Below are positions 8,023-62,597 of a DNA stretch of 64,000 nt, in pieces. This DNA is from a virus, in the IMG/VR virus record IMGVR_UViG_3300009082_000017, positions 64,001 through 128,000 of that record; one strand, given 5' to 3'. The first letter of the stretch is position 1, and each line of letters begins with the position of its first letter. The notes beneath the pieces were generated by a model. That model saw only the letters and a program-made list of their open reading frames with translations, had not been told where the DNA came from and searched no databases. The position numbers and the translations under genes are program-made.

Positions 8023-8339
8023 TTCACCCATGAAAGTTCTATTTCATGGTGTTATAAGAAAGGATTAAAATGAAAATCTTAAAAATTCAAGATATTACAC
8101 CCTTTCGTGGTAAAGAACCTAATGATATGGATTTATTAAATTGTTTGGTAGAATATAACGATGGAGTTACTGGAAATTCATATATGTATCGTGCTAAATA
8201 CGATAAACTTATTTTTCAAGCAGACCTAATTAAAAAATATAATATCACGGAATATGAATTAAATGTGTTTACAGATTTGATCAGAGATGAAATTGATACT
8301 GAACATTTTTATAATGAAACTTAAAGAATAGGAGAAAAA

Positions 8340-8741
8340 ATGAAAGGTAAAATTACTATTTCAAAAACTTATGGCAATTATGACAATCCAAGGCCAGTTC
8401 GTATTACTATTACAGACACAGATGCCAATATTGATTTTGCTGAAATTAATTTAAGTCTGGAAGAAATTGCCGAAGCATTACTTGGATTGGCTCATGTGGA
8501 ATGTGAAATAACAACACATGATTTAAAAAACGTTGGAAAAACAAGGGAAATGGATACATTAATTGTAAAGTTCCCTGAAGAAATTAACTATCCTACCAAA
8601 CAAGATGCTCATGACTTTGCAATTCAACAAATGCCTGAAACTTGGGAATTACGAGACAGTTTTACTTCGCAAAAATCTTTCTTTGAAGAAAATGGTAAAA
8701 AATATGCAAGAGCCAATATTATAAGATGGGTAGAAAAATAG
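8340..8741 (+). CDS. hypothetical protein
   Basis: 133 aa, AGGAG SD. Confidence 0.7.
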   Translation: MKGKITISKTYGNYDNPRPVRITITDTDANIDFAEINLSLEEIAEALLGLAHVECEITTHDLKNVGKTREMDTLIVKFPEEINYPTKQDAHDFAIQQMPETWELRDSFTSQKSFFEENGKKYARANIIRWVEK

Positions 8742-16049: not shown

Positions 16050-17510
16050 ATGAAAGAAATTAATCCATTTTTACTTACCGACTTCTATAAGGTTGGACAT
16101 GTGTTTCAATATCCAAAAGGAACTACCCTTGTTTATTCAAATATGACACCAAGGCAATCACGCTTAAAAGGTGTTGATAAGATGGTGGTTTTTGGTATTC
16201 AGTGGTTTATTAAACGATACTTATTAGAATATTTTAATGAGAATTTCTTCAATCGTCCGAAAGAAGAAGTTATGGCTGAATACAAACGTATGATTTTTTA
16301 TACATTGGGTGGTGATTTGCCATCCTATGAACATATTGCTAAAATCCATGATTTAGGATTTTTGCCAATCGAAATTAAAGCATTACCAGAAGGATCAACA
16401 GTCTCTATGCGTATTCCTTTTCTTACGATTGTAAATACTAAACCAGAATTTTATTGGTTAACTAATTTTATTGAATCTTTGATTTCTTCTGTTATTTGGC
16501 AACCCTGTACAAGTGCCACTATTGCTTACGAATATCGTAAGATTTTGAATAAGTATGGCACAATTACAGGAATGTCTCCAGATACAGTTCAATGGCAAGG
16601 ACATGATTTCTCATTTCGTGGAATGAGCAGTCCTGAAAGTGCTGCGACTAGTGGTATGGCTCATTTGCTTTCCTTTACTGGAACCGATGGTATCCCTGCT
16701 ATTGCAAGACTTGAACAGTACTATAATGCAAATGTTGAAAAAGAACTTGTAGGTGCTAGTATTTCTGCTACGGAGCATTCTGTAATGAGTGCCGGTGGAT
16801 TTGAAAATCAATTCGATACATACAAACGATTGATTACGGAAATCTATCCAAATGGTATGCTTGCTATTGTTAGTGACACCTGGAATCTTTGGGATGTATT
16901 AACTGATTTTATGCCAAGGCTTAAGAATGACATTATGTCTCGTGATGGTAAAATTGTTATTCGTCCTGATAGTGGAGATCCTGTTTTAATTATTTGTGGA
17001 AATCCTGCTGGAAAAACTGAAGAAGAGCGTAAAGGTGTTGTTGAGCTTCTTTGGGAAGTGTTTGGTGGAACTCTTACTTCTACCGGCTATAAACTGCTTG
17101 ATTCTCATATTGGAACCATTTATGGCGATAGTATTACACGAGAACGTTGTGAAGAAATTTGCTCACGTTTAGAGAAAAAAGGTTTTGCTTCTCAGGCGGT
17201 TTTAGGAATTGGTAGTTATACTTACCAATACAATACTCGTGATACTTTTGGAACAGCAATGAAGTCAACTTATGTTGAAATTAAAAATATTGGTATGGCA
17301 ATTTTTAAACATCCTGTTACAGACGATGGAACCAAGTTTTCTGCAACTGGTTTGTTAGAAGTTGTAAAAGATGGTAATAGAGAATTTGTGTTGAAAGAAA
17401 ATGTAACTTGGGATGAAGAAAAACAAGGCGAATTAAAAACTGTATTTTTGGATGGAAAGTTGACAAAAGATTTTACTCTGGCAGAAATTAGAAATAATCT
17501 TTGGGGTTAG
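16050..17510 (+). CDS. nicotinamide phosphoribosyltransferase-like protein (NadV/Namat-like)
   Basis: TDFYKVGH, HDFSFRG, ATEHSVM, VSDTW, IRPDSGDP, IYGDSIT, GIGSYTYQ..TRDT. Confidence 0.93.
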   Translation: MKEINPFLLTDFYKVGHVFQYPKGTTLVYSNMTPRQSRLKGVDKMVVFGIQWFIKRYLLEYFNENFFNRPKEEVMAEYKRMIFYTLGGDLPSYEHIAKIHDLGFLPIEIKALPEGSTVSMRIPFLTIVNTKPEFYWLTNFIESLISSVIWQPCTSATIAYEYRKILNKYGTITGMSPDTVQWQGHDFSFRGMSSPESAATSGMAHLLSFTGTDGIPAIARLEQYYNANVEKELVGASISATEHSVMSAGGFENQFDTYKRLITEIYPNGMLAIVSDTWNLWDVLTDFMPRLKNDIMSRDGKIVIRPDSGDPVLIICGNPAGKTEEERKGVVELLWEVFGGTLTSTGYKLLDSHIGTIYGDSITRERCEEICSRLEKKGFASQAVLGIGSYTYQYNTRDTFGTAMKSTYVEIKNIGMAIFKHPVTDDGTKFSATGLLEVVKDGNREFVLKENVTWDEEKQGELKTVFLDGKLTKDFTLAEIRNNLWG

Positions 17511-39469: not shown

Positions 39470-40300
39470 TTGAAAGAATTACAACCGGCAATCAAATGGT
39501 CAGGAAGTAAACGTCCTATTGCAAAAGAAATTGTAGAATCATTTCCAGATAATATTGAAACATATTATGAACCTTTTTGTGGCGGATGTTCTGTACTGTA
39601 TTATTTATTGAATAGCAATAAACTTGGTGCAAAACGATATGTTTGTTCAGATATCAATAATGATTTAATAGATTTGTGGAATACAATTAAATCTAATCCA
39701 AGTCAAGTTATTAATAATTATTCGAGAATGTGGAATGAGTTACAAGTTTTAAGTATTGCAGATCGCAGACAATATTTCTACGATGTTCGAAGTAGATTCA
39801 ATAAAGAAAAATCACCTTATGACTTTATGTTTATTATGAGAACTACAACCAATGGTATGCCTAGATATAATAAATTAGGAGAATTTAATAATTCTTTTCA
39901 TATTACAAGAGATGGTATTAATCCAAAAGAATTTACAACTACGATTGATAAATGGTCTAGTTTATTAAATAATTATGAAGTAGAATTTGTTTGTCAAGAT
40001 TATATTAATATTGTTTCAGATAGCGAAGATGTGATTTATTTAGACCCGCCTTATGCTGGGACAAAAGGAATGTATTATGGAGTAATTGATTATAATAAAT
40101 TATGGGAATGGGTGAAGATTCAAAAAGGATTTGTCGCACTAAGTTTTGATGGAAGAACCACAAGCACAGAATATTCTGATTTAGTTCCAAAGGATATTTT
40201 TAGTAATCATAAATTGATTTGTTCTGGTAATTCTTCATTCAGAAGGACTATCGGAAAATCAAGATCAGAGTATGTTTATGAAAGTTTATATACCCAATGA
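39470..40300 (+). CDS. Dam-like (D12 class) N6-adenine DNA methyltransferase
   Basis: KWSGSK, EPFCGG, SDIN, YLDPPY; probable TTG start at 39470. Confidence 0.92.
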   Translation: MKELQPAIKWSGSKRPIAKEIVESFPDNIETYYEPFCGGCSVLYYLLNSNKLGAKRYVCSDINNDLIDLWNTIKSNPSQVINNYSRMWNELQVLSIADRRQYFYDVRSRFNKEKSPYDFMFIMRTTTNGMPRYNKLGEFNNSFHITRDGINPKEFTTTIDKWSSLLNNYEVEFVCQDYINIVSDSEDVIYLDPPYAGTKGMYYGVIDYNKLWEWVKIQKGFVALSFDGRTTSTEYSDLVPKDIFSNHKLICSGNSSFRRTIGKSRSEYVYESLYTQ

Positions 40301-42165: not shown

Positions 42166-42909
42166 TGTATAGTCTTGGTACGCGGATATACTTTTGGAGA
42201 TGAAGGAGATGGGGTCGCGGTTGGGATTGCTGGGCGACTAACCAAAAGAAATTTAGCATAAGATAGAAGCAAAATAAAGTGTATGAATATGCTTCAAAAA
42301 ATCTTGGTGAGATTAATTATATAATAATATGTATAAGATTCCTAGAAATAAACTCACAAAATACTAGGATTAAAAAAACTTATAAAGGAGAAAAACAAAA
42401 TTGAAAGATTATAGAAAAACACATAGTAAAATTCGAATCCCCGCAAAACAAAATAATAACATTATTGTTTCACCTCTATCTACCTCCAAAGAAGAAACTT
42501 CTGTCGAAGGCTTAGAACCTAAAATCATTCCCGATAACGGCAAACGTTTTACAGTTAAATCCAATCAATGGGTTATGGAGAAGTTTCAAAACCAAGACAC
42601 TCCTACTAGAAAAATTATTGATTTAGGTAAAGATTTGACCTGGCAGGAAGCCAAGAAAATGAAGAAAGAAAATAAGAATTCGTGGATTATTTAATTCCCC
42701 ATAAAACGAATATTTCATGTGATAAGAGAGACGTAAATGTGTTTTAAAAAGAAAAATAATAAATATATGAAATGCCCATTATGTAGAGGGAAAGGTTATA
42801 CGGGAATTATAATACATGAAAAGTGTCCAAGGTGTGAAGGCGATAAAAAAGTATTAAAATCAGAAGACGAATCAAAAACTTGTGGAACTTGTGGTGGAAG
42901 ATTAGATTG

Positions 42910-43422
42910 ATGCGTTATCTCGTACATTTAAAAAATATTTTGCTTCATAAATATTATGTTTTTTTTGCTTGTTTGAAATTAAAAGTCCCTTTGTATTTAG
43001 CAATTTTTCACGATATTTCAAAATTTAAATTATCTGAATTTATTCCATATGCTAAATATTATTATAATAAAGACGGATCTCATGCCGATGTAAAAGACAA
43101 ACACGGTGAATTAGAATACACTAAAGAAGCAAACAATATTAAAGTGGCGTGGCTATATCATTCTCATACAAACAGGCATCATTGGAACTATTGGATTACT
43201 ATTAGGTCTGATGGATTAATTTATCCAAATATAATTCCCGATAAATATATAAAAGAAATGGTTGCAGATTGGATAGGTGCATCTAAAGCTTATAATCTAA
43301 ATATTAAGGTTATTGATTGGTATAATAAGGAAAAAGAAAACTTAATATTACATCAAGATACTAGAACAAAAATAGAAAAAATATTACAAATATTGGAGTA
43401 TAATGGAAATAATAGAAACTGA
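42910..43422 (+). CDS. HD-like protein (DUF5662-like), paralogue of 17517
   Basis: HKYYV, HDISK, EMVADW. Confidence 0.75.
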   Translation: MRYLVHLKNILLHKYYVFFACLKLKVPLYLAIFHDISKFKLSEFIPYAKYYYNKDGSHADVKDKHGELEYTKEANNIKVAWLYHSHTNRHHWNYWITIRSDGLIYPNIIPDKYIKEMVADWIGASKAYNLNIKVIDWYNKEKENLILHQDTRTKIEKILQILEYNGNNRN

Positions 43423-48683: not shown

Positions 48684-49314
48684 TATTGATGGGAATTTTT
48701 TTGATAAAGATTATTTTGAAAATGGGAAACAAACCAATAAAAGTTTCTATGAAAATTATCATTGGATGCCTCAAAGAAGTTTTAGAGAAGCGTTAGCTTT
48801 TATTGACTGTTTGCAACTCAATGAAAATTCTTATGTTCTAGAAATTGGCTGTGCGAAAGGTTTTCTTATTCGTGCATTAAGAGAATTAGAAATTAAAGTA
48901 GATGGTGCAGATATCAGCAATTATGCCTTGTCGTTTGCACCGGAAGGATGTTGGAATTGCTCGAATGATTCTTCTTGGGATAACCATGCTAATTTTGGAT
49001 ACACAAATATAATTATCAAAGATATGTTGGAACACTTGAATAAAGAACAATTGGGAATATCTTTAAATAATTTTTCAAAAGTTTCAAATAAAATGATATG
49101 TGTTGTTCCAATTGGAAGCAATGGTAAATATCGAATCCCAGAATATGAATGTGATCAGAGCCACGTCATACGAGAAAACGAGTCATTCTGGTATTGTTTT
49201 TTTGAAATGAATGGTTGGAAAGTTATAAATCATTTTCCACATTTAAAAGGGATAAAAGATAATTGGACTCATTATCCTGATGGCAACCATGTTTTTGTAT
49301 TGGAGTATAAATAA
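48667..49314 (+). CDS. class I SAM-dependent methyltransferase
   Basis: VLEIGCAKG, GADIS, DMLEH. Confidence 0.85.
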   Translation: MWILYNIDGNFFDKDYFENGKQTNKSFYENYHWMPQRSFREALAFIDCLQLNENSYVLEIGCAKGFLIRALRELEIKVDGADISNYALSFAPEGCWNCSNDSSWDNHANFGYTNIIIKDMLEHLNKEQLGISLNNFSKVSNKMICVVPIGSNGKYRIPEYECDQSHVIRENESFWYCFFEMNGWKVINHFPHLKGIKDNWTHYPDGNHVFVLEYK

Positions 49315-50168
49315 TGTTGAGTATTGATTTAACCGGTAACTGCGGAGACCAAATCCTACGCTACTGTATTTGCAGAAGTGTAGCTGAAAAAAACAATTAT
49401 AGGTATGGGATAAATTCAATTACTAGTAATGATTATTATAATGGAAAAGGACAATTATATTTTTTTAAGGGTATTGATTATGGTGAACCTAACAATACAC
49501 CCTTTAGTCAATTGCCCCCAAACACAGACAATGTTTGGGAAGAAAAAAGAGAGTTTTATCAAGGATATAATTTTCATCCTTTCCAACCAGATATTTTTGA
49601 TGTTACACCTAATACTAAATTGATAGTTTATTGTGGACAAGATGCATTCTATCTGGATAAAGAAAAAGTTTCGAAATGGTTAGAGATTAAAGATGAATAT
49701 GCGGAAGAATCTAAAAGGTTATTAGAAGGATCAGAAATTGAATTAAATGAAAATACTTGTGTGATTAATTGTCGTGGTGGAGAATATAAATCAGTTCCAT
49801 CTTTATTTTTAACACATAATTATTGGGACAAAGCAATTGCTTTTATGAAACAAAAAAATCCTAACTTTAAATTTATTGTTGTTACGGAAGATCCAGAATT
49901 TTATAAAACATTTTTTGATGTACCTGTTTATCATTTTAATATTCATACTGATTACTATATTCTTAATAATGCAAAAAATATTATCGCTTCAAATTCTGGG
50001 TTTGGAATATTTCCGATTTGGACTAATAAAAATAATCCATATGTTATCGCCCCTTATTTATGGGCGAATCATAACTACGGTGAGAATGAGGAGTGGGCAA
50101 ATTCGAATATGAGAAGTTGGGATTGTTTTAATTTTATGGATAGGGATGGAGAGTTGTATGACAAATGA
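49314..50168 (+). CDS. GT11-like (alpha-1,2-fucosyltransferase family) glycosyltransferase
   Basis: GNCGDQ, INCRGGEY, VTED, IASNSGF. Confidence 0.75.
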   Translation: MLSIDLTGNCGDQILRYCICRSVAEKNNYRYGINSITSNDYYNGKGQLYFFKGIDYGEPNNTPFSQLPPNTDNVWEEKREFYQGYNFHPFQPDIFDVTPNTKLIVYCGQDAFYLDKEKVSKWLEIKDEYAEESKRLLEGSEIELNENTCVINCRGGEYKSVPSLFLTHNYWDKAIAFMKQKNPNFKFIVVTEDPEFYKTFFDVPVYHFNIHTDYYILNNAKNIIASNSGFGIFPIWTNKNNPYVIAPYLWANHNYGENEEWANSNMRSWDCFNFMDRDGELYDK

Positions 50169-50186
50169 GTTGCATAAGGGCGGAGT

Positions 50187-50906
50187 ATGTTTATTTATAA
50201 AACGACAAACTTAGTTAATGGTAAAATTTATATAGGGCAATCTCAGCACGACATTAGTTTTGATTATTTAGGTTCTGGAGTATTGTTTACAAAAGCTATA
50301 AAAAAATATGGAAAGAAAAATTTTAAAAGAGAAATTTTAGAAGACGGTATTGTTGATATAAAAACATTAAATGATAGAGAAATTTATTGGATAGAATATT
50401 TTCATGCGACGGATATAAATATAGGATATAATATTTCTATAGGAGGATTCGGTACAATAGATCCTACTGGAAGAGTTGCAAAAAGAATATCTGAAGGAAG
50501 AAAAGGGGTTAGGTTATCTGAAGAGTCTAAAAAAATATTATCAGATGCACATCTTGGAATAAGACAAACAGAAGAAAGTAAAGTGAAAATATCAAAAACA
50601 TGCAAAGAGAATATAGAAAAATTTGGTCATCCTCAAGCGGGGATACCTAAACCTGAAGAATTAAAAGAAATTATGCGGAGAAATTCTCAAGGCAAAATTC
50701 GTGGAGGGGCATCCAAATATATAGGTGTTCAAAAAGGAAGAAGAAAAAAGTGGAAATCCCAAATAGTTTATAAGAAAAAGATTTATTATTTGGGAGAATT
50801 TGACGATGAAAAAGATGCGGCAAGAGCATATAATAATAAAGCATTAGAGCTTTATGGGACAACCGCTAGATTAAATATTATAGAAGAGGATGAGAATAAT
50901 GAATAA
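50187..50906 (+). CDS. GIY-YIG homing endonuclease with NUMOD3 and AP2 domains
   Basis: FIYKTTNLVNGKIYIGQS, YLGSG, SEESKKILS repeats, YLGEFDDEKDAARAYN. Confidence 0.88.
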   Translation: MFIYKTTNLVNGKIYIGQSQHDISFDYLGSGVLFTKAIKKYGKKNFKREILEDGIVDIKTLNDREIYWIEYFHATDINIGYNISIGGFGTIDPTGRVAKRISEGRKGVRLSEESKKILSDAHLGIRQTEESKVKISKTCKENIEKFGHPQAGIPKPEELKEIMRRNSQGKIRGGASKYIGVQKGRRKKWKSQIVYKKKIYYLGEFDDEKDAARAYNNKALELYGTTARLNIIEEDENNE

Positions 50907-51636
50907 TTTTAAAATTTATTTTAGAATTTCTAGCAAGGGCAATCCACTTGGACGCACAGAACTTTCTGGTACTGAATTAGATGGAATTACTAGACAAGAT
51001 TGTTTTAATAATTTATTAAGAGTTTTTGGTACAGAGAATTTAATAGTGATTGCAGATAATGCTGACGATGATGTAATATCATTTTTACAATCTAAAGGAA
51101 TAAAAAATATTGATAGAACATATTTTGGGAATACTCTTAGTTTTAGATATATTTTAGATCGAGCAGTTAGTGAATTAGATGAGGATGGCATTGTTTACTT
51201 TTTAGAAGATGACTATGCTCACAATTATAATGCCGAAACAATAATTAGGGAAGGGCTAGAAATTGGGGATTATGTATCCTTATATGACAGCATGGACAAA
51301 TACAAAGATACTGATAAAGGAGGATATAATCCCTTTATTCATAATGGAGGGGAAGATACGAGAGTGATGATTACAGATACTTGTCATTGGAAAATTACAA
51401 ATGCTACGACTATGAGTTTTGCTTCAAAAATAAAAACGTTGCGAGAAGATTATGGTGTAATTACAAAATATTGTCCTAATGGCGCACAGCATCCCATGGA
51501 TTTTTTGATGTTTAGAGAATTGGTTACGCAAAAAAACAGAAAATTAATCAATCCTATCCCTGGATATTCTGCACATATTGGGCTTGAAATGTCACCTTTT
51601 GTTCCATGGATTAAATTATTAAAAGGAGAATTATGA
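50890..51636 (+). CDS. GT-A fold putative glycosyltransferase
   Basis: VIADN, YFLEDDY. Confidence 0.7.
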   Translation: MRIMNNFKIYFRISSKGNPLGRTELSGTELDGITRQDCFNNLLRVFGTENLIVIADNADDDVISFLQSKGIKNIDRTYFGNTLSFRYILDRAVSELDEDGIVYFLEDDYAHNYNAETIIREGLEIGDYVSLYDSMDKYKDTDKGGYNPFIHNGGEDTRVMITDTCHWKITNATTMSFASKIKTLREDYGVITKYCPNGAQHPMDFLMFRELVTQKNRKLINPIPGYSAHIGLEMSPFVPWIKLLKGEL

Positions 51637-52256
51637 GTAAAGATATTGCTATTGAAGTACTTAAATATTTAGATTTTAATGATGGGGTGTACTTTGACGC
51701 AGGCGCGCAAAATGGCGAATTTCAGTCGAACACAGTCATTTTAGAAAGAGCAAAAAATTGGACAGGTATACTTGTGGAACCATCTCCAAAAGCATATAGT
51801 GATTGCTTGAAAAATAGAAGCCAAGAAAAAAATATTATTATTCATGGAGCATTAGTTTCTGCCGATTATGGTAAACCTACTATTATGGGGGATTTCTTTG
51901 GTCATCCTATGAATAGTATTGGTGGTAAAAGATTAAATAATGCAGGTAATTCTGTTATTGAAGTTCCCGCTTATACTATGAATGAAGTTTTGGAAAAATA
52001 TAACGTTGATAAAATTGATTTTCTAAGTTTGGATATCGAAGGGCTAGAATACTGGGTATTGAAAGATTTAAACTTTGATAAATGGGCACCAAAATGGGCA
52101 TTGATTGAATGGAACGAAGGGGAAGATGAATTATTTCCATTTATGAAAAGTAAAGGATATGACTGTGTTGGAAATATTTCTGATTTTAATTTAGTGGACG
52201 ACCCTCAATGGCCTCAAACACACCAAGACTGGCTCTTCAAATTAAAGGATAAATAA
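51633..52256 (+). CDS. FkbM family methyltransferase
   Basis: DAGAQNG..SNT, GILVEP, IDFLSLDIEGLE. Confidence 0.88.
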   Translation: MSKDIAIEVLKYLDFNDGVYFDAGAQNGEFQSNTVILERAKNWTGILVEPSPKAYSDCLKNRSQEKNIIIHGALVSADYGKPTIMGDFFGHPMNSIGGKRLNNAGNSVIEVPAYTMNEVLEKYNVDKIDFLSLDIEGLEYWVLKDLNFDKWAPKWALIEWNEGEDELFPFMKSKGYDCVGNISDFNLVDDPQWPQTHQDWLFKLKDK

Positions 52257-52260
52257 TATT

Positions 52261-53079
52261 ATGTCAAAAGTCTATGACGTTCAAACAGTCTTTAATGAAA
52301 TTGATACATGGATGCTCCGTTTCGAGGTCTTGAATGATTCAGTAGATTATTTTGTAGTTAACGAGGCACCGTTAACTTTTAGTGGCAAACCTAAACCTTT
52401 ATATTTCTGGGAGAATCGTGATAAGTTTGCAAAATTTTCAAACAAAATTATCTACAATGTTTTTGACGAAGAAAAACAAGGTTGGGATCAATGGGATAGG
52501 GATAGAGAACATAAAAATGGAGCGATGAAAGCTCTTGAAGGTGTCGCCAATGATGAAGATATAATTTTCTATTCCGATGCTGACGAAATCTGGAACCCTT
52601 CCAATATCAATTTTGATAATTTTAAAGATGACACTTTATATATTCTATACCAATCGGTATATTATTACTATCTAAATTGCCTTTGGGAAAATACTGTAGA
52701 CCCAACTGCCATTTGGAGAGGGAGCCGTTATAGCTCCTATGGTTTATTAAAAAATCATTCTTTTGATGCTTTTAGAGCATACGATGGGTATTTCTTCCAG
52801 AATCAATTATTTAAAAAAGAATATATTAATAAAGGTGGTTGGCACTTTTCATTCTTAGGAGGCGCTGAGAATATTAAATATAAAATAGATTCTTACGGCC
52901 ATCAAGAACTTAATGTACCTGTTATTAATGATAATGTTCAAAATAATATTGATGCTTTACGAGATCCATTTTTCAGACCAAATTTCAGAATTAGTCCCAT
53001 TGATATAACTTTAGAGACTCATCCTAAATATTTAGTTGATCATTTAAATGAATATAGTAAATATATTTATAAAAGTTAA
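52261..53079 (+). CDS. GT17-like (beta-1,4-GlcNAc transferase family) glycosyltransferase
   Basis: FNEID, TFSGKPKPL, SDADEI, GGWHFSF. Confidence 0.85.
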   Translation: MSKVYDVQTVFNEIDTWMLRFEVLNDSVDYFVVNEAPLTFSGKPKPLYFWENRDKFAKFSNKIIYNVFDEEKQGWDQWDRDREHKNGAMKALEGVANDEDIIFYSDADEIWNPSNINFDNFKDDTLYILYQSVYYYYLNCLWENTVDPTAIWRGSRYSSYGLLKNHSFDAFRAYDGYFFQNQLFKKEYINKGGWHFSFLGGAENIKYKIDSYGHQELNVPVINDNVQNNIDALRDPFFRPNFRISPIDITLETHPKYLVDHLNEYSKYIYKS

Positions 53080-53092
53080 TTTGTTTTAACCC

Positions 53093-53121
53093 TTGACAGA
53101 TTTTAGTTTATGTGTTATAGT
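53093..53121 (+). promoter_or_regulatory. sigma70-type promoter
   Basis: TTGACA-17 bp-TATAGT; upstream TTGTTTTAACCC is shared with the promoter at 57652. Confidence 0.8.
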
Positions 53122-53151
53122 AATAGAAATATATTGGGTTAGGAGGATAAG

Positions 53152-53787
53152 GTGAAATTAGACCAAATTTTTGAATTAGGATATTTAATCAATTTAAAAG
53201 AAAGAGTTGATCGTTGGGAATTATGCGATCATGAGTTCTATAAAATCAATTATTATCCACAACGATTTGAAGCAATTAAAAATGAAGTAGGTAGAGTTGG
53301 ATGCTTTCTTAGTCATTTAGAAATATTAAAAAAAGCACAAAGAGAAAATAAAAATGTTTTAATAATGGAGGATGATGTAGAGTTTGATGAAGATTGCAGA
53401 CAAGTATTGGAAGCGTCTCTAGACGAACTTTGTGATTTAAATTTTGATATGGCTTATTTCGGTGGGAATATTCTCCGTCCATTTTTCCAAGTCACAAAAC
53501 ATTGGGCAAGATTAAGCCATTGCCAATCAACCCATTGTTATAGTATTCATCGAAATTTTTTATCAACAATTATAAATTTTCTTGAAAATAATTCTACTCA
53601 AAAAACAGGATTGGCAATTGATCAATTATATGCAGACTATCTTATTCCTAATTGTAAAGCTTATATTATTATGCCCATAATCGCAAGACAACGTTCGGAT
53701 TTTTCAACTATTGAAAATAGAGAAGTAACTTATGATTTGCCGGTTAAAAGATATTGGCATTATTTGGTGAAAAATGAAAAAGTGTAA
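53152..53787 (+). CDS. GT25 family glycosyltransferase
   Basis: INLKERVDR, GCFLSH, IMEDDV. Confidence 0.85.
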   Translation: MKLDQIFELGYLINLKERVDRWELCDHEFYKINYYPQRFEAIKNEVGRVGCFLSHLEILKKAQRENKNVLIMEDDVEFDEDCRQVLEASLDELCDLNFDMAYFGGNILRPFFQVTKHWARLSHCQSTHCYSIHRNFLSTIINFLENNSTQKTGLAIDQLYADYLIPNCKAYIIMPIIARQRSDFSTIENREVTYDLPVKRYWHYLVKNEKV

Positions 53788-54619
53788 AACAATTATATTC
53801 TCTCGCAATCGTCCTCTTCAATTAACCTTATGCCTTAAAACATTATTAAATCATTGTACGGACATTTTACAACAATCAAACATTACAGTTTTATACAGAA
53901 ATGATGAGGAATATCGGCAGTCTTTTGACAATTTAATGTTGGAATTTCCCCAAATATCGTTCAAAAAGGAGGAAAATTTCAAAAAAGACCTGCTTTCTTT
54001 GCTACCACATGAAAGCAACATTTCATGGGGTAAAAATGAAGGTTTTGTCACTTTTGTTGTCGATGATCAGATTTTCACCGAAGATTTTTCAATGAAAGAA
54101 GTTATTTCAACACTTGTTGAAAATCAGGATTGTATAGGGTTTAGTTTACGTCTTGGCAAAAATTGTGTACGATGTTTCCCTTATGATTGTGAGCAAGCAA
54201 TTCCAAAGACAGAAAAAGTTTCAAAGAATGTTGTAAAATATAATTGGCAAGAAGCAGAGTATGACTTCAATTATTGTTTAGAGTTATCTGCAAGCGTTTA
54301 CAGGGTAAACGACCTTATAGAGATGTTTGAGATTTGCGATTATGACTCACCCAACCACCTCGAATCAATTATGAGTTCGTGTTTTTATAAGGACAAACCA
54401 AACCTTTTAATGTTTGAAAAATCGGCATCCTTCAGTTATCCGATGAATAAGGTTCAAACATCACACCCAAATAGGAGTGGAGATTTCAATCCTGACACTC
54501 TTAGATTAATTTATGAAAAGGGTGGAAGATTTGAAAATAAGCAATTTGATGGTTATATTAGTAATGGAGCACATGAGATTCCAGAAAGTATAAATTTGGT
54601 GGACACATATGGCAAATGA
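53774..54619 (+). CDS. GT-A fold putative glycosyltransferase containing an in-frame dyad site
   Basis: FSRNRPLQL, FVVDD, FSLRLG; dyad at 54005-54030. Confidence 0.7.
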   Translation: MKKCKTIIFSRNRPLQLTLCLKTLLNHCTDILQQSNITVLYRNDEEYRQSFDNLMLEFPQISFKKEENFKKDLLSLLPHESNISWGKNEGFVTFVVDDQIFTEDFSMKEVISTLVENQDCIGFSLRLGKNCVRCFPYDCEQAIPKTEKVSKNVVKYNWQEAEYDFNYCLELSASVYRVNDLIEMFEICDYDSPNHLESIMSSCFYKDKPNLLMFEKSASFSYPMNKVQTSHPNRSGDFNPDTLRLIYEKGGRFENKQFDGYISNGAHEIPESINLVDTYGK

Positions 54620-55391
54620 TCTAGTAAGTATCTTAACCCCCACATACAACCGTCCAGACTGGTTAGTATTAACATTGAAATCATTAATTGCACAAACCTA
54701 TACTAATTGGGAATGTATCGTGGTAAATGATGCTGGTATGGATGTTGGTAATATTATAAAAAATCTTGACGATAATAGAATAAAATATTATACAAACCCC
54801 GTTAATTTGGATTTGTCGGGTACGCGCAATGTGGCAACAGAAAAAGCAACTGGTGATTGGTTTATTATGCTTGACGATGATGATCAACTTTTTCCAGAAG
54901 CCATTGAATTTAGATTATGGAGAGCACATAAATTAAATGCAGAAATAGTTTATTCTAGGGTTTTGCAATGTTATTACGAAAAACGAGATAATGGTTATCA
55001 ATATATTGGAGAAAAGCTTTATTGGGACAGCATTTATGACCCAGATTTGATACTTTTGCAAAATGTTAGCCCTTGCAATGGAATAATGTATTCTAGGAAA
55101 GCGCAAGAAGTAGGAGGATTGTTTGATACCGAATTAAAAGCAGGAGAAGATTGGTCGCATTCAATTGCTATGTCAAGACATTATCCGTTTTATGAAACTA
55201 AAATTATTGACTGTAGTTGTAGTTTTCGGACAGACAATAACCAAATGACCGGTAGCCGCAATTTTGCAATAGATCAAGCAAAGATTTATAAAAGATGGCG
55301 TTCGACAGCAAAGAACTTATCTTGGGTAGTTGAGAATCAAAACAAATCATTATTAGCACGAGGGATTAATCCTTCTGACTTTGGACTATAG
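54609..55391 (+). CDS. glycosyltransferase family 2
   Basis: VSILTPTYNR, VVND, LDDDD, ED. Confidence 0.9.
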   Translation: MANDLVSILTPTYNRPDWLVLTLKSLIAQTYTNWECIVVNDAGMDVGNIIKNLDDNRIKYYTNPVNLDLSGTRNVATEKATGDWFIMLDDDDQLFPEAIEFRLWRAHKLNAEIVYSRVLQCYYEKRDNGYQYIGEKLYWDSIYDPDLILLQNVSPCNGIMYSRKAQEVGGLFDTELKAGEDWSHSIAMSRHYPFYETKIIDCSCSFRTDNNQMTGSRNFAIDQAKIYKRWRSTAKNLSWVVENQNKSLLARGINPSDFGL

Positions 55392-55402
55392 GAGAGAATA
55401 AA

Positions 55403-56515
55403 TTGACCCGTTTCGCAATGTTTTATTCAGACGACATTGGCTCGTTGAATTGCAGCCTTTATAATATTATTTATCCAGCAAAATATATTAATGAAAAATA
55501 TCCAGGAATTCATTCTGCTGACACTTTTAATATTAATCAATTAAATCAATGGACTCCAGAAGTTGTAGAGTCAATTGAAAAAGCAGATTTAGTATTGATT
55601 GAAAGAAATTTATTTGGCGATGCACTCATTCGAGAGATGCAACTTTTTTTACAAAATAAACCTGTCGCATTAATATGGGATGATTCTTATGAAAATATTT
55701 GCGAGGAGAACGCTAGTTTTTCGTTCTGGCACGATAGTCTTGTTCAACGTCAAAATGAAAAAGGAGTATTAGAAAATATAAAAATATTTCCGCATAATAT
55801 TACACAACTTCGTAAAGCAGCTAGATTGGCAAAAGCATATATTGGGCCATCTAGATTACTTGCAGAAGATTGGAGTAAATATACTGATTCTTATCGCATT
55901 TATAATTATTTAGATTTGGAACGTTATCCTGAAGATTCTAAACCATTGTTGCCTTTCAATGGAATTACTATTGGTTGGTGTGGATCTCTTTCTCATGTAT
56001 CATCTTTTACTGAAAGTGGAATTATTCCTGCTTTAACTTATATCGGTAGAAAATATGACAATGTTAGAATTATGACAGGTGGAGACAAAAGGATTTATGA
56101 TAAAATTAATCTTCCGAATACAAGAAAAATATTTTCATCATATGTTCCAGATGAACAATGGGCATCGTTACAAAAAAGTGTAGATATTGGTATTGCCCCA
56201 CTTACGTCATCTTTTGATCGTCGCAGATCACATATCAAAGTATTAGAATATATGCTTTTGAAAATTCCATGGATCGCCAGTAATTTTGAAACATATGAGG
56301 AATTGGGTGAATATGGGCATCTTATTGAAAATGGGGTTGACAATTGGAAGAAGGCTATGAGTGATGCAATTGAAAATATTGATAAGTATCGTGAGTTAGC
56401 GAATGGTAAAGCTTATGAGTTTGCCAAAGAACAAACCTATGAAAAGAATATTGATAAATTGATCGCTGTGTACCAACAGATTATAAGTTCTCCTGATAGA
56501 GATGACCCACAATGA
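55403..56515 (+). CDS. GT-B fold glycosyltransferase (GT4-like)
   Basis: IGWCGS..H, DIGIAPL...KVLEY...PWIAS. Confidence 0.85.
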   Translation: MTRFAMFYSDDIGSLNCSLYNIIYPAKYINEKYPGIHSADTFNINQLNQWTPEVVESIEKADLVLIERNLFGDALIREMQLFLQNKPVALIWDDSYENICEENASFSFWHDSLVQRQNEKGVLENIKIFPHNITQLRKAARLAKAYIGPSRLLAEDWSKYTDSYRIYNYLDLERYPEDSKPLLPFNGITIGWCGSLSHVSSFTESGIIPALTYIGRKYDNVRIMTGGDKRIYDKINLPNTRKIFSSYVPDEQWASLQKSVDIGIAPLTSSFDRRRSHIKVLEYMLLKIPWIASNFETYEELGEYGHLIENGVDNWKKAMSDAIENIDKYRELANGKAYEFAKEQTYEKNIDKLIAVYQQIISSPDRDDPQ

Positions 56516-57408
56516 TTGAAAGAATATCTGCAATTTATTCCATAAGAAATATTATTACAAATATGAGATATATTGGTGCATCTACAGATATTAAGAAAAG
56601 ATGGGATAAGCATAAAAGATATTTAAAGCACAACAAACATTGGAATTTTTTATTTCAAGAAGAATATAATATTTATGGTGAAAACGCATACGAATATACA
56701 ATTGTTCAATTGCTACCGTCAGACAAAGAATTACTAAAATTTATGGAAACATATTGGATTGTGTATTACGATTCTTTTGTTGATTGTGGGAAAGGATATA
56801 ATTTGACATATGGTTCTCCAAATTTTTGCCCATCAAATACTACGAGGGAGAGAAATAGAGAAGCCCAAAAGGGAAAAACAATGTCCGAAGAAACAAAAAA
56901 GAAAATATCTGATTTCATGTCCAGCGAAGACAATCCACATTTAGGAGCAAAAAGAAGTGAAGAAACAAAAAAGAAAATGTCAGATGCCGGAAAAGTAAAA
57001 ATATTTACAGAAGAACATAAAAAGCATTTATCAGAATCTTTATCTGGTGAAAATCATCCGTGGTTTAATAAACATTTACCAGAAGATACAAAAGAGAAAA
57101 TTGCAGAGGCTCAAAGAGGAGAGAAAAGCCCTAGGTTTAATTGGCAATACACAGAAGAGGAATTGGACTTAATTTCTAGAGGAAGACAGGGAATAAAAAA
57201 TAGCGGAGAACATACGAGTACTTATGTTGGAGTTTCTTTTTCAGATGCAACATGTGAATGGAGATCTTCTATCACTTTTAGAAAACAGGTTTATAATTTA
57301 GGCTTTTTTAATGATGAAATAAATGCAGCTAAAGCTTATGATAAAAAAGCTATTGAATTATATGGCGAGAATGCTAAAACAAATTTCCCAAAGGAAAATT
57401 ATAAATGA
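56512..57408 (+). CDS. GIY-YIG homing endonuclease with NUMOD3 repeats and AP2 domain
   Basis: AIYSIRN...YIGAS..R, SEETKKKIS/SEETKKKMS, LGFFNDEINAAKAYD. Confidence 0.88.
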   Translation: MIERISAIYSIRNIITNMRYIGASTDIKKRWDKHKRYLKHNKHWNFLFQEEYNIYGENAYEYTIVQLLPSDKELLKFMETYWIVYYDSFVDCGKGYNLTYGSPNFCPSNTTRERNREAQKGKTMSEETKKKISDFMSSEDNPHLGAKRSEETKKKMSDAGKVKIFTEEHKKHLSESLSGENHPWFNKHLPEDTKEKIAEAQRGEKSPRFNWQYTEEELDLISRGRQGIKNSGEHTSTYVGVSFSDATCEWRSSITFRKQVYNLGFFNDEINAAKAYDKKAIELYGENAKTNFPKENYK

Positions 57409-57651
57409 ACATCCCCGAAACCCTAACCTATCTCAACACAGAAATACAACTCAAAAAAGCGAGCCTCAAAAACTCGCTTTTTATTCTATCTATGGTTATT
57501 GAAGATACAAACGTTGGAAGTATAGAAGATGTTATTATAAATTATTATAATAGTCAAGGAATATCGTGTAAGGTAAAACGATGTAATTTGACAGGTGAAT
57601 TTGAGATTAGTATTTGGTGGTAATTTAATGTAACGAGTTTTGTTTTAACCC

Positions 57652-57680
57652 TTGACAAGATTTATATTTAATGATAAACT
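57652..57680 (+). promoter_or_regulatory. sigma70-type promoter
   Basis: TTGACA-17 bp-TAAACT with TG extension. Confidence 0.8.
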
Positions 57681-57714
57681 TCTTGCACAAATAAGAAAAA
57701 AGGAGAATAAAAAA

Positions 57715-58062
57715 ATGACTAGATCAACTCAATACATCGGACTAAACAATCTTGCTAGAACCTATATCAAAAACGCTCTTTCTGTCGAAAAATATGAAAT
57801 GACAGAAGGAATGTTTGACGAAAAAATTATGGGGTGTATTTATCATATGCCAGTTCCAGAAGGGCTAAATAAAGAATATATCTTTAAGGAAGTTGTTCAG
57901 TTTACTGCGTGGTCTTCTGGCCAGATGATCTTTACTCATTTGCAAGGTACTCTTATAAAAGAAATTGGTCAAGTCTGCGATATGGGTGAATATTTTTCAT
58001 GGATGAAAGTCCCTGATAATGATGTGGAATATGATCCTGATTTGGGTGTTTATAGTTTATAA
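57715..58062 (+). CDS. hypothetical protein
   Basis: ATG 57715 after AAGGAG. Confidence 0.7.
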   Translation: MTRSTQYIGLNNLARTYIKNALSVEKYEMTEGMFDEKIMGCIYHMPVPEGLNKEYIFKEVVQFTAWSSGQMIFTHLQGTLIKEIGQVCDMGEYFSWMKVPDNDVEYDPDLGVYSL

Positions 58063-58077
58063 GTTATTTAAGAATAT

Positions 58078-59253
58078 TTGAATTTCAAAAGGAAGGAGGA
58101 ATACATTATATATAAAACGATTTTTGTTCCAGTGAAATGCAATAAAAAAGATTTTGAATACATAAAAACTTTAAATAAAATTTCTGCAAATGTGTGGAAT
58201 TATTGTGTTGAAATAGACAAAGAAAATGGTCAAAAATTAACTTTATCGCAATTAGAATTTATGACTAAAAATAAATTTCCATTACATGCAAAAGGAATAC
58301 ATCATATTGTTTTTAAATATTTGAATGCAAGGAAGTCAATGTGGGAAGTTATTAAAAAGAATAAAGACAATGGAAATAAAATAACCTTACCATATAGATT
58401 AAAAGAATATATGCCCACTGGTTGGGATTCACAGGCAATACATCCAGAATATGACAATAATAAAATTAGGCTTACTTGCATTTTGGGTAGAGGACAAATT
58501 GTTTGCAAAGTTAAATCAATACCCAACAATATCGCAGAGATTGAATTGGTCTATAAAGACGAATATTATTTATCTATCAAATATAAAGAAGAAAATGATA
58601 CAAATTTAATTCAATCGGATAATATTGCTAGTATTGACCTTGGAGAAATTCATGCAATTACAAGCATTGACAAATTTGGGAATTGTGTTATAGTTACTAA
58701 TAGAAAGATTCGTAGTTTAATTAGATTAAAAGATAAAAGACAAGGCGAATTACAATCTTTAAGATCAAAATGCGTCAAAGGAAGCAAACAATCTAAAAAA
58801 TATACAAAAGCAATTTATGATATTAAATATGAGTTTGATAACAAAATTTTGGATGCGCTTCACAAACAAACAAATTTATACGTCAAATGGTGTAGAAGTC
58901 ATAAAATTTCGAAAGTTTATTATGGAGATTTAGATACCACTACTAGAAACAGCAAAGGCAAGAAAAGTCAAAAAATAAATCATAAATTAAGTATGTGGAG
59001 ATTTGGTATATTAATTAAACAACTTCAATATAAACTTTTTCAATATGGTATTGTAATGGAAGAAATAAGTGAAGCATATACAAGCCAAACTTGCCCAAAT
59101 TGTGGCAATAGAAAAAAGACGGGAAGTAGAAACTATTCTTGTAAGTGTGGATACATTCAACACAGAGATATTGTAGGTGCAATAAATATATTGAATTTTA
59201 ATACAGATACTGATTTAAAAATGTATAAAAACAAGGTATATCTACAAATCTAG
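58078..59253 (+). CDS. tnpB: TnpB family RNA-guided nuclease with C-terminal zinc ribbon (no transposase)
   Basis: SIDLG, YGDL, EAYTSQTCPNCG, CKCG, HRDIVGAINI; start uncertain (AAGGAGG near 58093 is followed by ATT/ATA). Confidence 0.88.
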   Translation: MNFKRKEEYIIYKTIFVPVKCNKKDFEYIKTLNKISANVWNYCVEIDKENGQKLTLSQLEFMTKNKFPLHAKGIHHIVFKYLNARKSMWEVIKKNKDNGNKITLPYRLKEYMPTGWDSQAIHPEYDNNKIRLTCILGRGQIVCKVKSIPNNIAEIELVYKDEYYLSIKYKEENDTNLIQSDNIASIDLGEIHAITSIDKFGNCVIVTNRKIRSLIRLKDKRQGELQSLRSKCVKGSKQSKKYTKAIYDIKYEFDNKILDALHKQTNLYVKWCRSHKISKVYYGDLDTTTRNSKGKKSQKINHKLSMWRFGILIKQLQYKLFQYGIVMEEISEAYTSQTCPNCGNRKKTGSRNYSCKCGYIQHRDIVGAINILNFNTDTDLKMYKNKVYLQI

Positions 59254-59375: not shown

Positions 59376-61021
59376 AAGTAGCAAATATATTATTTGCTCA
59401 AATTATTTAAGGAGAAAATATGAACAACGAATATCAAGACTGGCGATCCATTCTCAATCCACCTACAAAAGATGGTGAGATTTGGATTTATGCTTATATT
59501 TGGGACGACGGATGGTGTATCATTAGAAAATATTATTACATGTCTGAGGGATTCAAAAAAGGTACGGCAAGATGGATGCCCATTATAGTTCCTCAACCAC
59601 CTACCGATGTAGATTTTAGTTTATATGAAACCCCATAAAACGACTGTTTCATGCGCAAAAAAAGGAAAATAAATGAAAAAATCTAAAAAAGCAAAATTAG
59701 TAATCACAGAAAAACAATATACTAAAAAAGAATGTCAACTTACTTGCCCACATTGTCATACTGAATTTCATTATATGAATGGATTTGATGAAAATATTTT
59801 ATTATACAAATGTACTCAATGTGGAAATTCTATTAGACTATATGATTAAGGATAAAATAAAATGCCCCTAGATAGAGACCTAGAAGATACTCGTGACGAA
59901 GAATCATATCAAAACTATTCTGATGAAAAAGAAGAAGCATTTTGGGATGAGGTTGATTATGAATATGATAGAATGATGGATGATAAAATGGATAAAGAAA
60001 ATTGGTGAAAAATATGACTGATCAACCGGCTGATAGTTATTGTAAAGGATGTAAATTTTTGAAATTAATTTATGAATTGGATGACAGGCAATATTATTTT
60101 GGATGTGAAAGCAAAATGACTTGTGATAAAATTAAAGAAAGTGAAGAAAACAAAAATGGCAGAGAAAACTAACCCTATCTATAAAATTTGTACTTGTTGC
60201 CAAACCCCATTCCACTATACTAAAAAATGGAATGACAAAATTCTCGAACAAGAAGCCATCAAACGATATGGTGATACTGTGGTGAAGCAAGAGGGTGTTG
60301 AAATTTGTAAGAAGTGTTGGGATGGGTTGGAGAAACCGGAAGGAAATAAAAATGATTGATGCTGAAAAATTAAGAATTATTACTAAAGAAGGTAGTATTA
60401 AAAAAGAAAAAACAATTTTGGAAAAAATCAATGATTTTATTGAATATGTAGAAAAAGAAATAAAATATAAAGCGTCAAATGGATTTTATTCTGCAAAAAT
60501 TGATCCTATTAATTTTGATAAAAATTTAATAGACACAAAAATAATCAATGAAATTAGAAAAAAACTAGAAAATTTTGGCTATAAAGTTGAAATGGATTAT
60601 ATTAGTGATGATATTTATATTAGTTGGTATAATTCATGAAACCGGTATTTCATGTGGTAAAAAGGATAAAAAATGACAAAAAATAAATGTATATATGAAA
60701 AATGGGGTGTATATTTTGCTCAGGGATGTACGGATCAACATATATCAGAGCACACTTGTAGTGATTGGTGCATATGCCCAAAATGCGGAAAAGAAATTGA
60801 ATTTTATGTTGAGCCAGAAGAGTACAGAGAAAAACAACCAGAAATTTATGAGGATGTAACTAGTGAAAAATGGTTCGCTGAAATAGTTTTTGAAGATGGA
60901 GAGCGCATTAAAGCTATTGGGAATTCTAAAATGGATGTTACTTTGAGATGGAATAGACTGCAAAGAGAATTATTATAACCCCACGAAAGAACCATTTCAT
61001 GAACTTGATTAAATTGGTATC

Positions 61022-61646: not shown

Positions 61647-62597
61647 ATGGTTACTGAAAAAAATAAAAAAGAACTCAAAATAATTGAGAAAAAAGAATTA
61701 GATAAATTCTTGCATCGCAAGTCTATTAAGTCTGAGCATACTAGGAAGTCATACAAAAATTGCATTGGACAATTGTTTGATCATTATAATATTGAAACGA
61801 TAGAAGATTATCAAAAACTCACATTGTCTAATTTCGAAGATTATCTTAATTCTTTACCAATCAAAGATGCCTCGTATAATCAACACCTTCGCTCTCTAAA
61901 GGTTTTCTCGTCTTGGTTAAAGAAGCATGATAAAATTCAAGAAGATATCCTCCAACCAATTAAATTGACTAAGGTAAACGCAGTTACTGGCGATAAAGAA
62001 TATGATAAGAAAAGACGAGCGAAAGAAAAGTTATATCTTACAGATAATGAAATTCAAAAAATGATTGCTGTGTCAAAAAATATAAATTCTAAATTAGCTA
62101 TTGCCCTTATGGGGTATATGGGACTTCGCAGAGAAGAACTTGTTGGTTTGACTATCACAGATGTTCATGGAGATTTCTTAGGGATTCCAGGGAAAGGCGG
62201 TACATACGAAGAAAGAAAAATGCCTCCTGCTGTAAAGTTTTTGGTAAATGAATATTTGAAAACCAGAAATAATAATTCTGAATATCTTATCGTTTCAAAA
62301 GTTGGGCAACATCAAATTACAAATACCAATTCTATTTATGAAAGGATCAAATCTGCCGGAAGAAAAGCTGGAATTGATGCCGAAAAAATGAAATTAGTTA
62401 CCCCACATACAATGAGACGAAGTACTGCTTGTAATGCTGTACTTAGGGGTGTTCCAAGTACTGTAGTCAAAGAGATGCTTAGGCATCAACGACAAGTTAC
62501 AACTGATATCTATTTGGAAGCGTTAAAAGGATCTGAGGCAGTTGATGCAGCTTTTGATTCACAACCAATGCCCGATATGTCAGTTTTGATGGTATAG
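61647..62597 (+). CDS. XerC/XerD-like tyrosine recombinase
   Basis: SAM-like N-domain (SEHTRKSY...LRSLKVFSSWL); catalytic GLRREE (R), GKGG (K), HTMRR (HxxR), LRH, TDIY (Y); 316 aa, no arm-binding domain. Confidence 0.93.
   Translation: MVTEKNKKELKIIEKKELDKFLHRKSIKSEHTRKSYKNCIGQLFDHYNIETIEDYQKLTLSNFEDYLNSLPIKDASYNQHLRSLKVFSSWLKKHDKIQEDILQPIKLTKVNAVTGDKEYDKKRRAKEKLYLTDNEIQKMIAVSKNINSKLAIALMGYMGLRREELVGLTITDVHGDFLGIPGKGGTYEERKMPPAVKFLVNEYLKTRNNNSEYLIVSKVGQHQITNTNSIYERIKSAGRKAGIDAEKMKLVTPHTMRRSTACNAVLRGVPSTVVKEMLRHQRQVTTDIYLEALKGSEAVDAAFDSQPMPDMSVLMV

Follow-up and report, generated by a model that had tools for sequence, protein, structure and literature searches.

The single-recombinase Xer/dif systems (XerH/difH, XerA/dif and XerS/difSL) use sites in which inverted arms of about 10-11 bp surround a 6-bp centre; the published difH site reads ATGAAAA-N6-TTTTCAA, with a 6-bp central region (PMC3325230, PMC5357621). 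A family of dyads with this layout was found in the IMG/VR virus record IMGVR_UViG_3300009082_000017, of which bases 64001-128000 were analysed (64,000 nucleotides, called the window; positions are those of the window unless another sequence is named). One member of the family, CCAC-ATGAAA-gcaaca-TTTCAT-GGGG at 54005-54030, lies in frame inside a glycosyltransferase gene (53774-54619, plus strand). On balance, this in-gene dyad is probably a working member of the family, placed in frame within a surface loop of a GT-A fold enzyme and maintained by selection at the DNA level, and a candidate core site for a Xer-like recombinase, its centre serving as an address.

The inner arm of the phage dyads resembles that of difH (PMC3325230, PMC5357621), and the phage genome encodes a Xer-like recombinase, for which XerA and XerD are the nearest relatives of solved structure. 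Unlike the Xer/dif systems, the phage has about 94 sites in place of one, each with its own centre, which is kept at the same slot in relatives; the sites stand at gene junctions of a virulent-looking phage, one of them inside a gene; and neither a role in dimer resolution nor a link to FtsK is indicated for the phage family. The identification of the dyads as dif sites proper was rejected on the number of sites, which are spread across the early/accessory region of a 160-kb phage, and on the lack of a dimer-resolution context.

The promoter-early stem-loops (PeSLs) of T4-like phages combine a sigma-70-like promoter with a terminator hairpin, are described as intergenic, and rely on homology for recombination, having no recombinase of their own (Arbiol et al. 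2010, PMC2839356; Comeau et al. 2014, PMC4122927). Like the PeSLs, the phage dyads are short conserved palindromes between small accessory genes, in plastic regions, and mark points of gene swapping among related phages (PMC2839356, PMC4122927); most of them are intergenic and flank swapped small accessory genes, the in-gene copy being the exception. Unlike the PeSLs, they have site-specific centres and no associated promoter or terminator, and they occur alongside a tyrosine recombinase in a phage outside the T4-like group.

The R64/IncI shufflon (Rci/sfx), which acts on PilV C-termini, has several inverted sites of the same core at one locus and gives inversion within a genome (PMC5430464, 10.1101/2024.10.25.620183). 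Here too a recombinase-type site lies in frame inside a gene (codons 78-86), exchange would give a constant N-terminal part with alternative C-terminal parts, and the N and C parts of the protein were incongruent across the dyad. The phage differs from the shufflon in that the centre gcaaca is unique in its genome and in that the exchanged unit would include several downstream genes. Because the centre is unique, any exchange partner would have to be another genome; shufflon-type inversion within one genome was discarded, only one gcaaca dyad being present and no centre being duplicated.

Integrons (attC/IntI) likewise string together units of a gene and a site, with a Xer-related tyrosine recombinase to serve them. 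The attC sites are long (about 57-141 bp), imperfect palindromes with R and L boxes and extrahelical bases, used as folded single strands with a common crossover point. An attC identity was rejected for the phage sites, which are 26-bp near-perfect dyads with unique centres; IntI4 was only a marginal match to the phage recombinase (E 3.5e-4), behind XerA and XerD. In engineered cassette exchange with heterospecific lox or FRT sites, spacer identity decides which sites pair, and the spacers of the phage dyads would decide pairing in the same way. A literature search for the dyad motif returned nothing relevant. The new elements are the logic of the unique centres, the slot boundary placed in frame, and a protein remodelled to retain the site; in other respects the site is of a known type.

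The in-gene dyad and its family

The window belongs to a complete 160,042-bp record (31.8% GC), with freshwater sediment as its source habitat, of a tailed phage encoding a tape-measure protein, a terminase, a large DNA polymerase, and RecJ-like and RecD-like proteins. The first 48 kb hold long structural genes on the minus strand, and about 110 kb hold mostly small plus-strand genes with most of the dyads. In the whole record 43 exact and 51 one-mismatch copies were counted, always with a 6-nt spacer, and in the window the core ATGAAA-N6-TTTCAT was present 28 times (0.05 expected). Relaxed sites numbered 80 at a spacing of 6 nt versus 0-2 at each other spacing; the reversed-sequence control contained no copies at N6, and spacings other than 6 nt showed background counts. 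The position matrix built from the 94 sites gave a symmetric consensus, CCCC-ATGAAA-(t....a)-TTTCAT-GGGG, with 10-11 informative positions per arm and a variable centre.

In the plus-strand part, nearly every dyad began 5-8 nt past a stop codon or supplied the stop itself (A-TGA-AA), and the plus-strand dyads ended about 20 nt (roughly 17-34 nt) ahead of the next start codon. A sigma-70-type promoter scan returned 105 promoter-like sites versus 107.8 expected, with no conserved -35/-10 elements beside the dyad in the matrix, and an intrinsic-terminator scan returned 9 terminator-like sites versus 7.5 expected, the 3' flank of the dyads being A-rich and not T-rich. An earlier note made from the letters alone (the original prediction) had found the in-gene dyad hard to read as a promoter operator or terminator, and this stood, since neither promoter- nor terminator-like signals were enriched.

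The same note had placed the dyad in frame in the glycosyltransferase open reading frame (ORF) 53774-54619 as PHESNISWG; position and frame were both confirmed. The immediate context is ctaCCAC ATGAAA gcaaca TTTCAT GGGGt, and the nine residues (codons 78-86) stand eleven residues before the FVVDD motif in the translation LLPHESNISWGKNEGFVTFVVDD. The left arm (CCAC ATGAAA, 54005-54014) codes for P-H-E and the first base of the S codon; the 6-bp centre (gcaaca, 54015-54020), a putative crossover region or "address", lies within the codons S-N-I; and the right arm (TTTCAT GGGG, 54021-54030), coding for (I)-S-W-G, overlies the place where the DxD beta-strand begins (I-L-F) in homologues free of the insertion. 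The right arm is followed on the plus strand by lineage-specific codons (the end of G, then K-N-E-G, 54031-54043, as seen in an alignment of 100 distinct homologues), by the rebuilt strand F91-V96 (54044-54061) and by the DxD motif (54062-54067).

The in-gene dyad (core start 54009) matches the full family consensus and is the only strong-consensus copy in the window deep within a long gene; no other dyad in its own genome has the centre gcaaca. The nearest family members are cccc ATAAAA cgaata TTTCAT gtga at 42701-42718, intergenic and at the start of a dyad-poor glycosylation island, and cccc ATAAAA cgactg TTTCAT at 59635-59652. The claim that no other copy exists between 42720 and 59630 was borne out at up to one mismatch; two matches with two mismatches (50158 and 58822) are at chance level, as the control gave one. 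An independent assembly of the probable source run covered 48871-54845 with zero differences, so the in-gene site is not an assembly artefact of the record.

The only other exact-core dyad deep in a long gene is outside the window, at genome positions 8324-8341 (L033:8324-8341), on the minus strand in the gene for a minor tail protein of 899 aa. The outer arms of this dyad (ttca/ttgg) are weak, and its region had no blastn counterpart in the related genome G001.

Selection on the DNA of the in-gene copy was examined in homologues from 108 loci, which gave 100 distinct sequences (all relatives were metagenomic, and 80 of roughly 470 metagenomic homologues were covered). In 22 homologues with the peptide x-K-x-x-[IV]-L-F the codons were always xAT, AAA, xTT and TTA: TTA was used in 22/22 (38% of Leu codons in the same genes), third-position T in Ile/Val in 22/22 (39%), and AAA makes up 78% of Lys codons in these genes. 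Among the 10 distinct sequences of the window's clade, a single codon was kept gene-wide in 5 of 48 residue-conserved degenerate columns (10%), whereas the 4 arm codons (the left-arm xAT and GAA included) were all invariant at synonymous positions and the two centre codons varied (AGC/AGT and AAC/AAT/GAC). As the compared sequences are related, exact probabilities are not claimed for this contrast with the rest of the gene, which is still large.

The arms also vary between genomes. Records of relatives contained 55-84 relaxed copies versus 0-1 in controls, and the double A/T form ATAAAA..TTTTAT accounted for 0 of 80 sites in the window's own genome (G000), 1 of 84 in G001, 19 of 65 in G002, 53 of 69 in G003, 48 of 66 in G004 and 55 of 55 in G005. 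The in-gene arms were of type G/C in G000, G/T in G001, A/T in G002 and A/T in G004, and they follow the arm dialect of each genome. Because the arm codons are synonymously invariant and the arms follow the dialect, the comparison supports a dyad kept by selection on the DNA itself, with the protein apparently remodelled to carry it. One alternative in the original prediction, a selected site with a genome-organising role, was upheld in its first half only; such a role is not specifically supported because other long stretches (133-148 kb of the genome) are without any dyad.

In L006 (7564-9132) the intergenic dyads are mostly asymmetric, cccc-ATAAAA-N6-TTTCAT-gggg (6 of 8), and the in-gene copy is fully symmetric (ATGAAA..TTTCAT).

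Conserved centres, a candidate recombinase and probable exchange at the dyad

A Xer-like tyrosine recombinase of 316 aa, the candidate enzyme for the dyad family, is encoded at 61647-62597 on the plus strand (PF00589, E 3.5e-21). Its closest solved relatives were XerA (4a8e, E 3.9e-18; 5hxy) and XerD, with the R, H-x-x-R, H and Y residues aligned, and homologues were present in 8 of 10 related phage records. The dyads, with inverted arms of 10-11 bp and a variable centre of 6 nt, have the layout of tyrosine-recombinase core sites.

The centres behaved in a site-specific manner. When all sites of the window's genome were compared with those of G001, 44 of 94 centres were identical versus about 2 expected; the shared centres were collinear, none was inverted, and the bases just outside the arms usually differed. 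Between consecutive shared centres the DNA of the two genomes was often without detectable similarity and of different length. No 6-bp centre was used twice in the window's genome, and G001 had one duplicate (GAGTGG at 39825 and 122084). At the first dyad past the island the centre cgactg was kept in the window, L005, L006 and L047, with different arms, and gcaaca was found in the in-gene site of orthologues L005/L038, L039, L044, L045 and L006 and in G001 at 17203, with the synonymous variants gtaata, gcgaca and gcaatg in other lineages. Conserved site-specific centres beside replaced contents point to a crossover region and are not predicted for an operator spacer or an RNA loop. From these patterns we infer that the dyads serve the phage's own Xer-like recombinase as core sites of the dif/lox type. 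G001 (L122-L129) is collinear with the window's genome and circularly permuted.

In such a system the unique centre of each dyad would act as an address. Sites within one genome could not recombine with each other, as their centres are unique, and the same slot in two co-infecting relatives could exchange the adjoining contents. The in-gene copy would be a slot boundary, dividing a glycosylation island with no other site in it into two modules open to exchange; recombination at this boundary would yield chimeric transferases with the N-terminal 78 residues from one parent and the rest from the other. A tentative extension, for which we would not go as far as even chances, is a natural address-coded cassette exchange in which about a hundred dif-like sites with private centres let a Xer-like enzyme swap slots between co-infecting relatives with no rearrangement within a genome; one boundary, in a protein loop, would shuffle transferase halves in frame, and the gene would have been reshaped, and its strand rebuilt, as the specificity of the recombinase changed.

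The gene itself was mosaic across the dyad. In the N-terminal part the window, P0001, L038, L039 and L045 formed a tight group, and P0018, P0011, P0015 and L047 formed another. Across the dyad, identity fell from 87% to 55% between the window and L045 and rose from 51% to 78% between the window and P0018. A scan of the agreement between left and right distance matrices showed two troughs, one at residues 72-92 (the dyad being at 78-86) and one near residue 131, and nucleotide similarity of the window to L006 and L047 began at 54071-54074, directly past the dyad and insert. These comparisons support exchange at the dyad, which would not be the sole process shaping the gene, as pairwise breakpoints were scattered. 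A breakpoint hotspot at the dyad by maximum chi-square was rejected as not specific enough. In assembled contigs of three DNA runs at 85% likeness, joints and loose ends came from many relatives and none was tied to the dyad.

Several observations weigh against a recombination site kept for exchange. The trough near residue 131 is as deep as that at the dyad and has no dyad, and maximum-chi-square breakpoints fell at gene nt 219-295 in some pairs and at 376-406, 516 and 704 in others; ordinary homologous recombination could explain such a mosaic. The in-gene site was lost in L042 and is absent from this position in the dyad-bearing L015, L016, L020 and L023, so it is dispensable. The in-gene centre also codes for S-N, which confounds its conservation. 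Recombinase and dyads co-occur in nearly all of the 10 related records, and this association therefore does not discriminate. Finally, selection for exchangeability would act on a second-order benefit.

The leading alternative, while still unlikely, is that the dyads bind a dimeric phage transcription factor; the in-gene copy would then control how the long island is transcribed, for instance as a roadblock or an internal control point for the genes downstream. Strict spacing, conserved half-sites, a free spacer and the absence of covariation fit a dimeric DNA-binding protein equally well, start codons follow most copies at a distance of about 20 nt, and 17 kb contain no dyad but the in-gene one. 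The spacer of an operator, however, would be expected to drift, and in a relative with replaced neighbouring DNA 44 of the 94 centres are preserved at their individual sites. In addition, no sigma-70-type promoter is associated with the dyads, the in-gene copy is not followed by a gene start, and the analysis turned up no candidate regulator.

Ancestry of the in-gene site

About 85 of the 100 distinct homologues joined the helix FKxDLLxLL to the strand [IV]LFxVDD by a fixed linker of 4-5 residues. Many homologues of 39-49% identity carried nAT AAA nnn nnn nTT TTA TTy at the identical nucleotide offset, that is, ATAAAA-N6-TTTTAT with zero extra residues. L049 was likewise insertion-free with ATGAAA-gcaatg-TTTTAT (N-E-S-N-V-L-F), L046 and L048 had the perfect core (H-E-S-D-I-S-W) and three extra residues, and the window, L005/L038, L039, L044, L045, L047 and L006 had the perfect core followed by 5-21 extra residues. 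Each codon of the core had its counterpart in the ancestral linker and strand (D-K-S-G-I-L-F to H-E-S-N-I-S-W); because it overlies ancestral codons at a fixed offset, the dyad core itself is not an insertion. By this alignment the in-gene site is old, since homologues of as little as 39% identity carry a weaker version of it at these codons.

The insert of 3-21 aa was confined to the window's clade and always started after ISW, 3' of the dyad. In the model of the insertion-free L052, I83-L84-F85, under the right arm, are inside a strand (E82-86); in that of the window, I83-S84-W85 are in a low-confidence loop and a new strand (F91-V96) lies downstream. The arm change was accompanied by the replacements K>E, L>S and F>W. 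In the simplest reading of the two models, the upgrade of the right arm to TTTCAT-GG would have abolished the beginning of the strand, a loss made good by the added residues.

The original prediction had offered, as one possibility, a scar: a cassette once integrated and then excised, leaving one in-frame site and a few codons tolerated in a loop, so that the site itself would be mobile. In support of it, an insert of variable length (3-21 aa) directly adjoins the right arm and is found in the dyad-bearing clade only, the inserts of L006 and L047 hold further CCCCCATATATGG palindromes, and in L007, L042 and L058 a dyad between genes, 3-4 kb downstream, has the gcaaca centre again. We nevertheless consider a scar improbable, and the claim of a mobile site did not survive the alignment. 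The core occupies ancestral codons at a fixed offset, with ATGAAA..TTTTAT present in L049 in the absence of any insertion, the weaker dyad pre-exists under synonymous constraint in the homologues of 39-49% identity, and real sequences provide a stepwise path (gcgtca > gcgaca > gcaaca). Excision by a tyrosine recombinase is, moreover, conservative and leaves no extra bases. The insertion of 8-10 aa anticipated at PHESNISWG does exist in a wider size range, and its place is other than foreseen, beginning past ISW; relatives with a cassette at this position, also anticipated, were absent from the 108 loci. A match by coincidence had been foreseen should dyad-free genomes carry the same peptide: homologues from GC-rich loci, the flanks of which show no dyad, carried unrelated linkers of 4-5 residues.

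Some relatives showed local changes around the site. The inserts directly 3' of the in-gene dyad in L006 (3826-3890) and L047 (93-125) hold short palindromes (CCCCCATATATGGGG; CCATATATGGTGG, which is repeated in L006), as might arise in a stretch that readily duplicates or slips. In L007 (14268-14285), L058 (7062-7079) and L042 (8043-8060) an intergenic dyad, ATGAAA-gcaaca-TTTTAT, lies downstream of the transferase gene, and an upstream ORF of 136-141 aa reads through it in the same frame, ending ...HNESNIL*. In these three the in-gene site either has another centre or has been destroyed, and the window's genome has no second gcaaca dyad. The pattern hints at exchange between in-gene and intergenic sites, and the stepwise path given above exists as well. 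In L081 (1012-1029, the same as L008) there is no dyad at the canonical codons, and ATAAAAGTGGTATTTTAT is found about 180 nt further into the gene; this sequence is identical in 18/18 nt, centre included, to the canonical in-gene dyad of L052, L050 and L051. No insertion was evident at the relocated L081 dyad, the local peptide being only one residue longer than in relatives.

A further possibility, also improbable and marginally weaker than a scar, is that the dyads act as hairpins in mRNA (processing, stability or translation coupling), the in-gene copy being a processing or pause site in the long transcript of the island. Copies in the window are foldable (-7 to -13 kcal/mol, z about -2.3 to -3.6) and stand between cistrons, just past stops and ahead of ribosome-binding sites. 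Arm variants, on the other hand, comprised 21 left-arm singles (A.C), 16 right-arm singles (G.U) and no compensated A-U doubles, and the hairpins of relatives reached only -2.4 to -6.6 kcal/mol, though sequence and 6-nt spacing were kept; for these two reasons a hairpin function of the family is unlikely. Conserved stems with free loops are the reverse of typical RNA-protein recognition, conservation of loops site by site has no RNA rationale, and terminators were not enriched.

That the peptide and AT-rich codon usage spell the dyad by chance is extremely improbable: CAT, GAA, ATT and TCA are common codons at 31% GC and the ancestral D-K..I-L-F easily spells ATAAAA..TTTTAT, but the core is expected 0.05 times per 64 kb, the choice of arm codons is far more uniform than background, the outer CCAC/GGGG arms are present too, and the arms match the genome dialect.

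The glycosyltransferase, its island and the meaning of the site

The product of the host gene (281 aa) matched no Pfam family. Its AlphaFold2 (AF2) model (pLDDT, the predicted local confidence score, 91) has a strand at 91-96 followed by D97-D98; Foldseek returned TarP, GnT-I and SpsA at probability 1.0, and D97, D98 and other columns were invariant in 23 homologues. The model thereby has the features of a GT-A fold glycosyltransferase, a Rossmann-like fold with DxD at the end of a beta-strand. The dyad-coded residues 78-86 are predicted to lie within its sole low-confidence loop (77-90), between the helix 69-76 and the DxD strand. An internal in-frame start at the dyad was ruled out, the ATGs in and after the right arm being out of frame, and a fusion of two genes at the dyad was ruled out by the single GT-A domain.

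The gene is part of a 13-kb glycosylation island that includes a DegT-type aminotransferase, an RmlD-like protein, a radical SAM enzyme, an FkbM methyltransferase and the glycosyltransferase families GT11, GT17, GT25, GT2 and GT1. A blastn search of 50500-58000 against the phage collection returned no match. The island is headed by a DUF5662 protein (42880-43422, E 1.9e-35), the first ORF past the dyad at 42701. A GIY-YIG/NUMOD3 homing-endonuclease gene (56512-57408) and a third TnpB-like gene (58078-59253, OrfB_IS605 and TNB domains) occupy its downstream half, between the in-gene dyad and the dyad at 59635.

For the dyad family as a whole, the in-gene copy serves as a natural control. No gene starts after it and no gene ends before it, yet it shows synonymous conservation and the family consensus, so the function of the family is a sequence-specific property of the DNA, independent of context, and not an activity as promoter, terminator or ribosome site. 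It is also a case of a DNA-level signal overriding protein constraint, three beta-strand residues having apparently been ceded to the site and the strand rebuilt downstream. If the link to the recombinase is true, the dyad would be a natural in-frame "lox-like" site that shuffles enzyme halves and gene modules between phages, and the family would offer about a hundred heterospecific sites, ready for use with a single recombinase. The finding would then bear on how large phages diversify the glycosylation of the host surface, or of DNA or virions.

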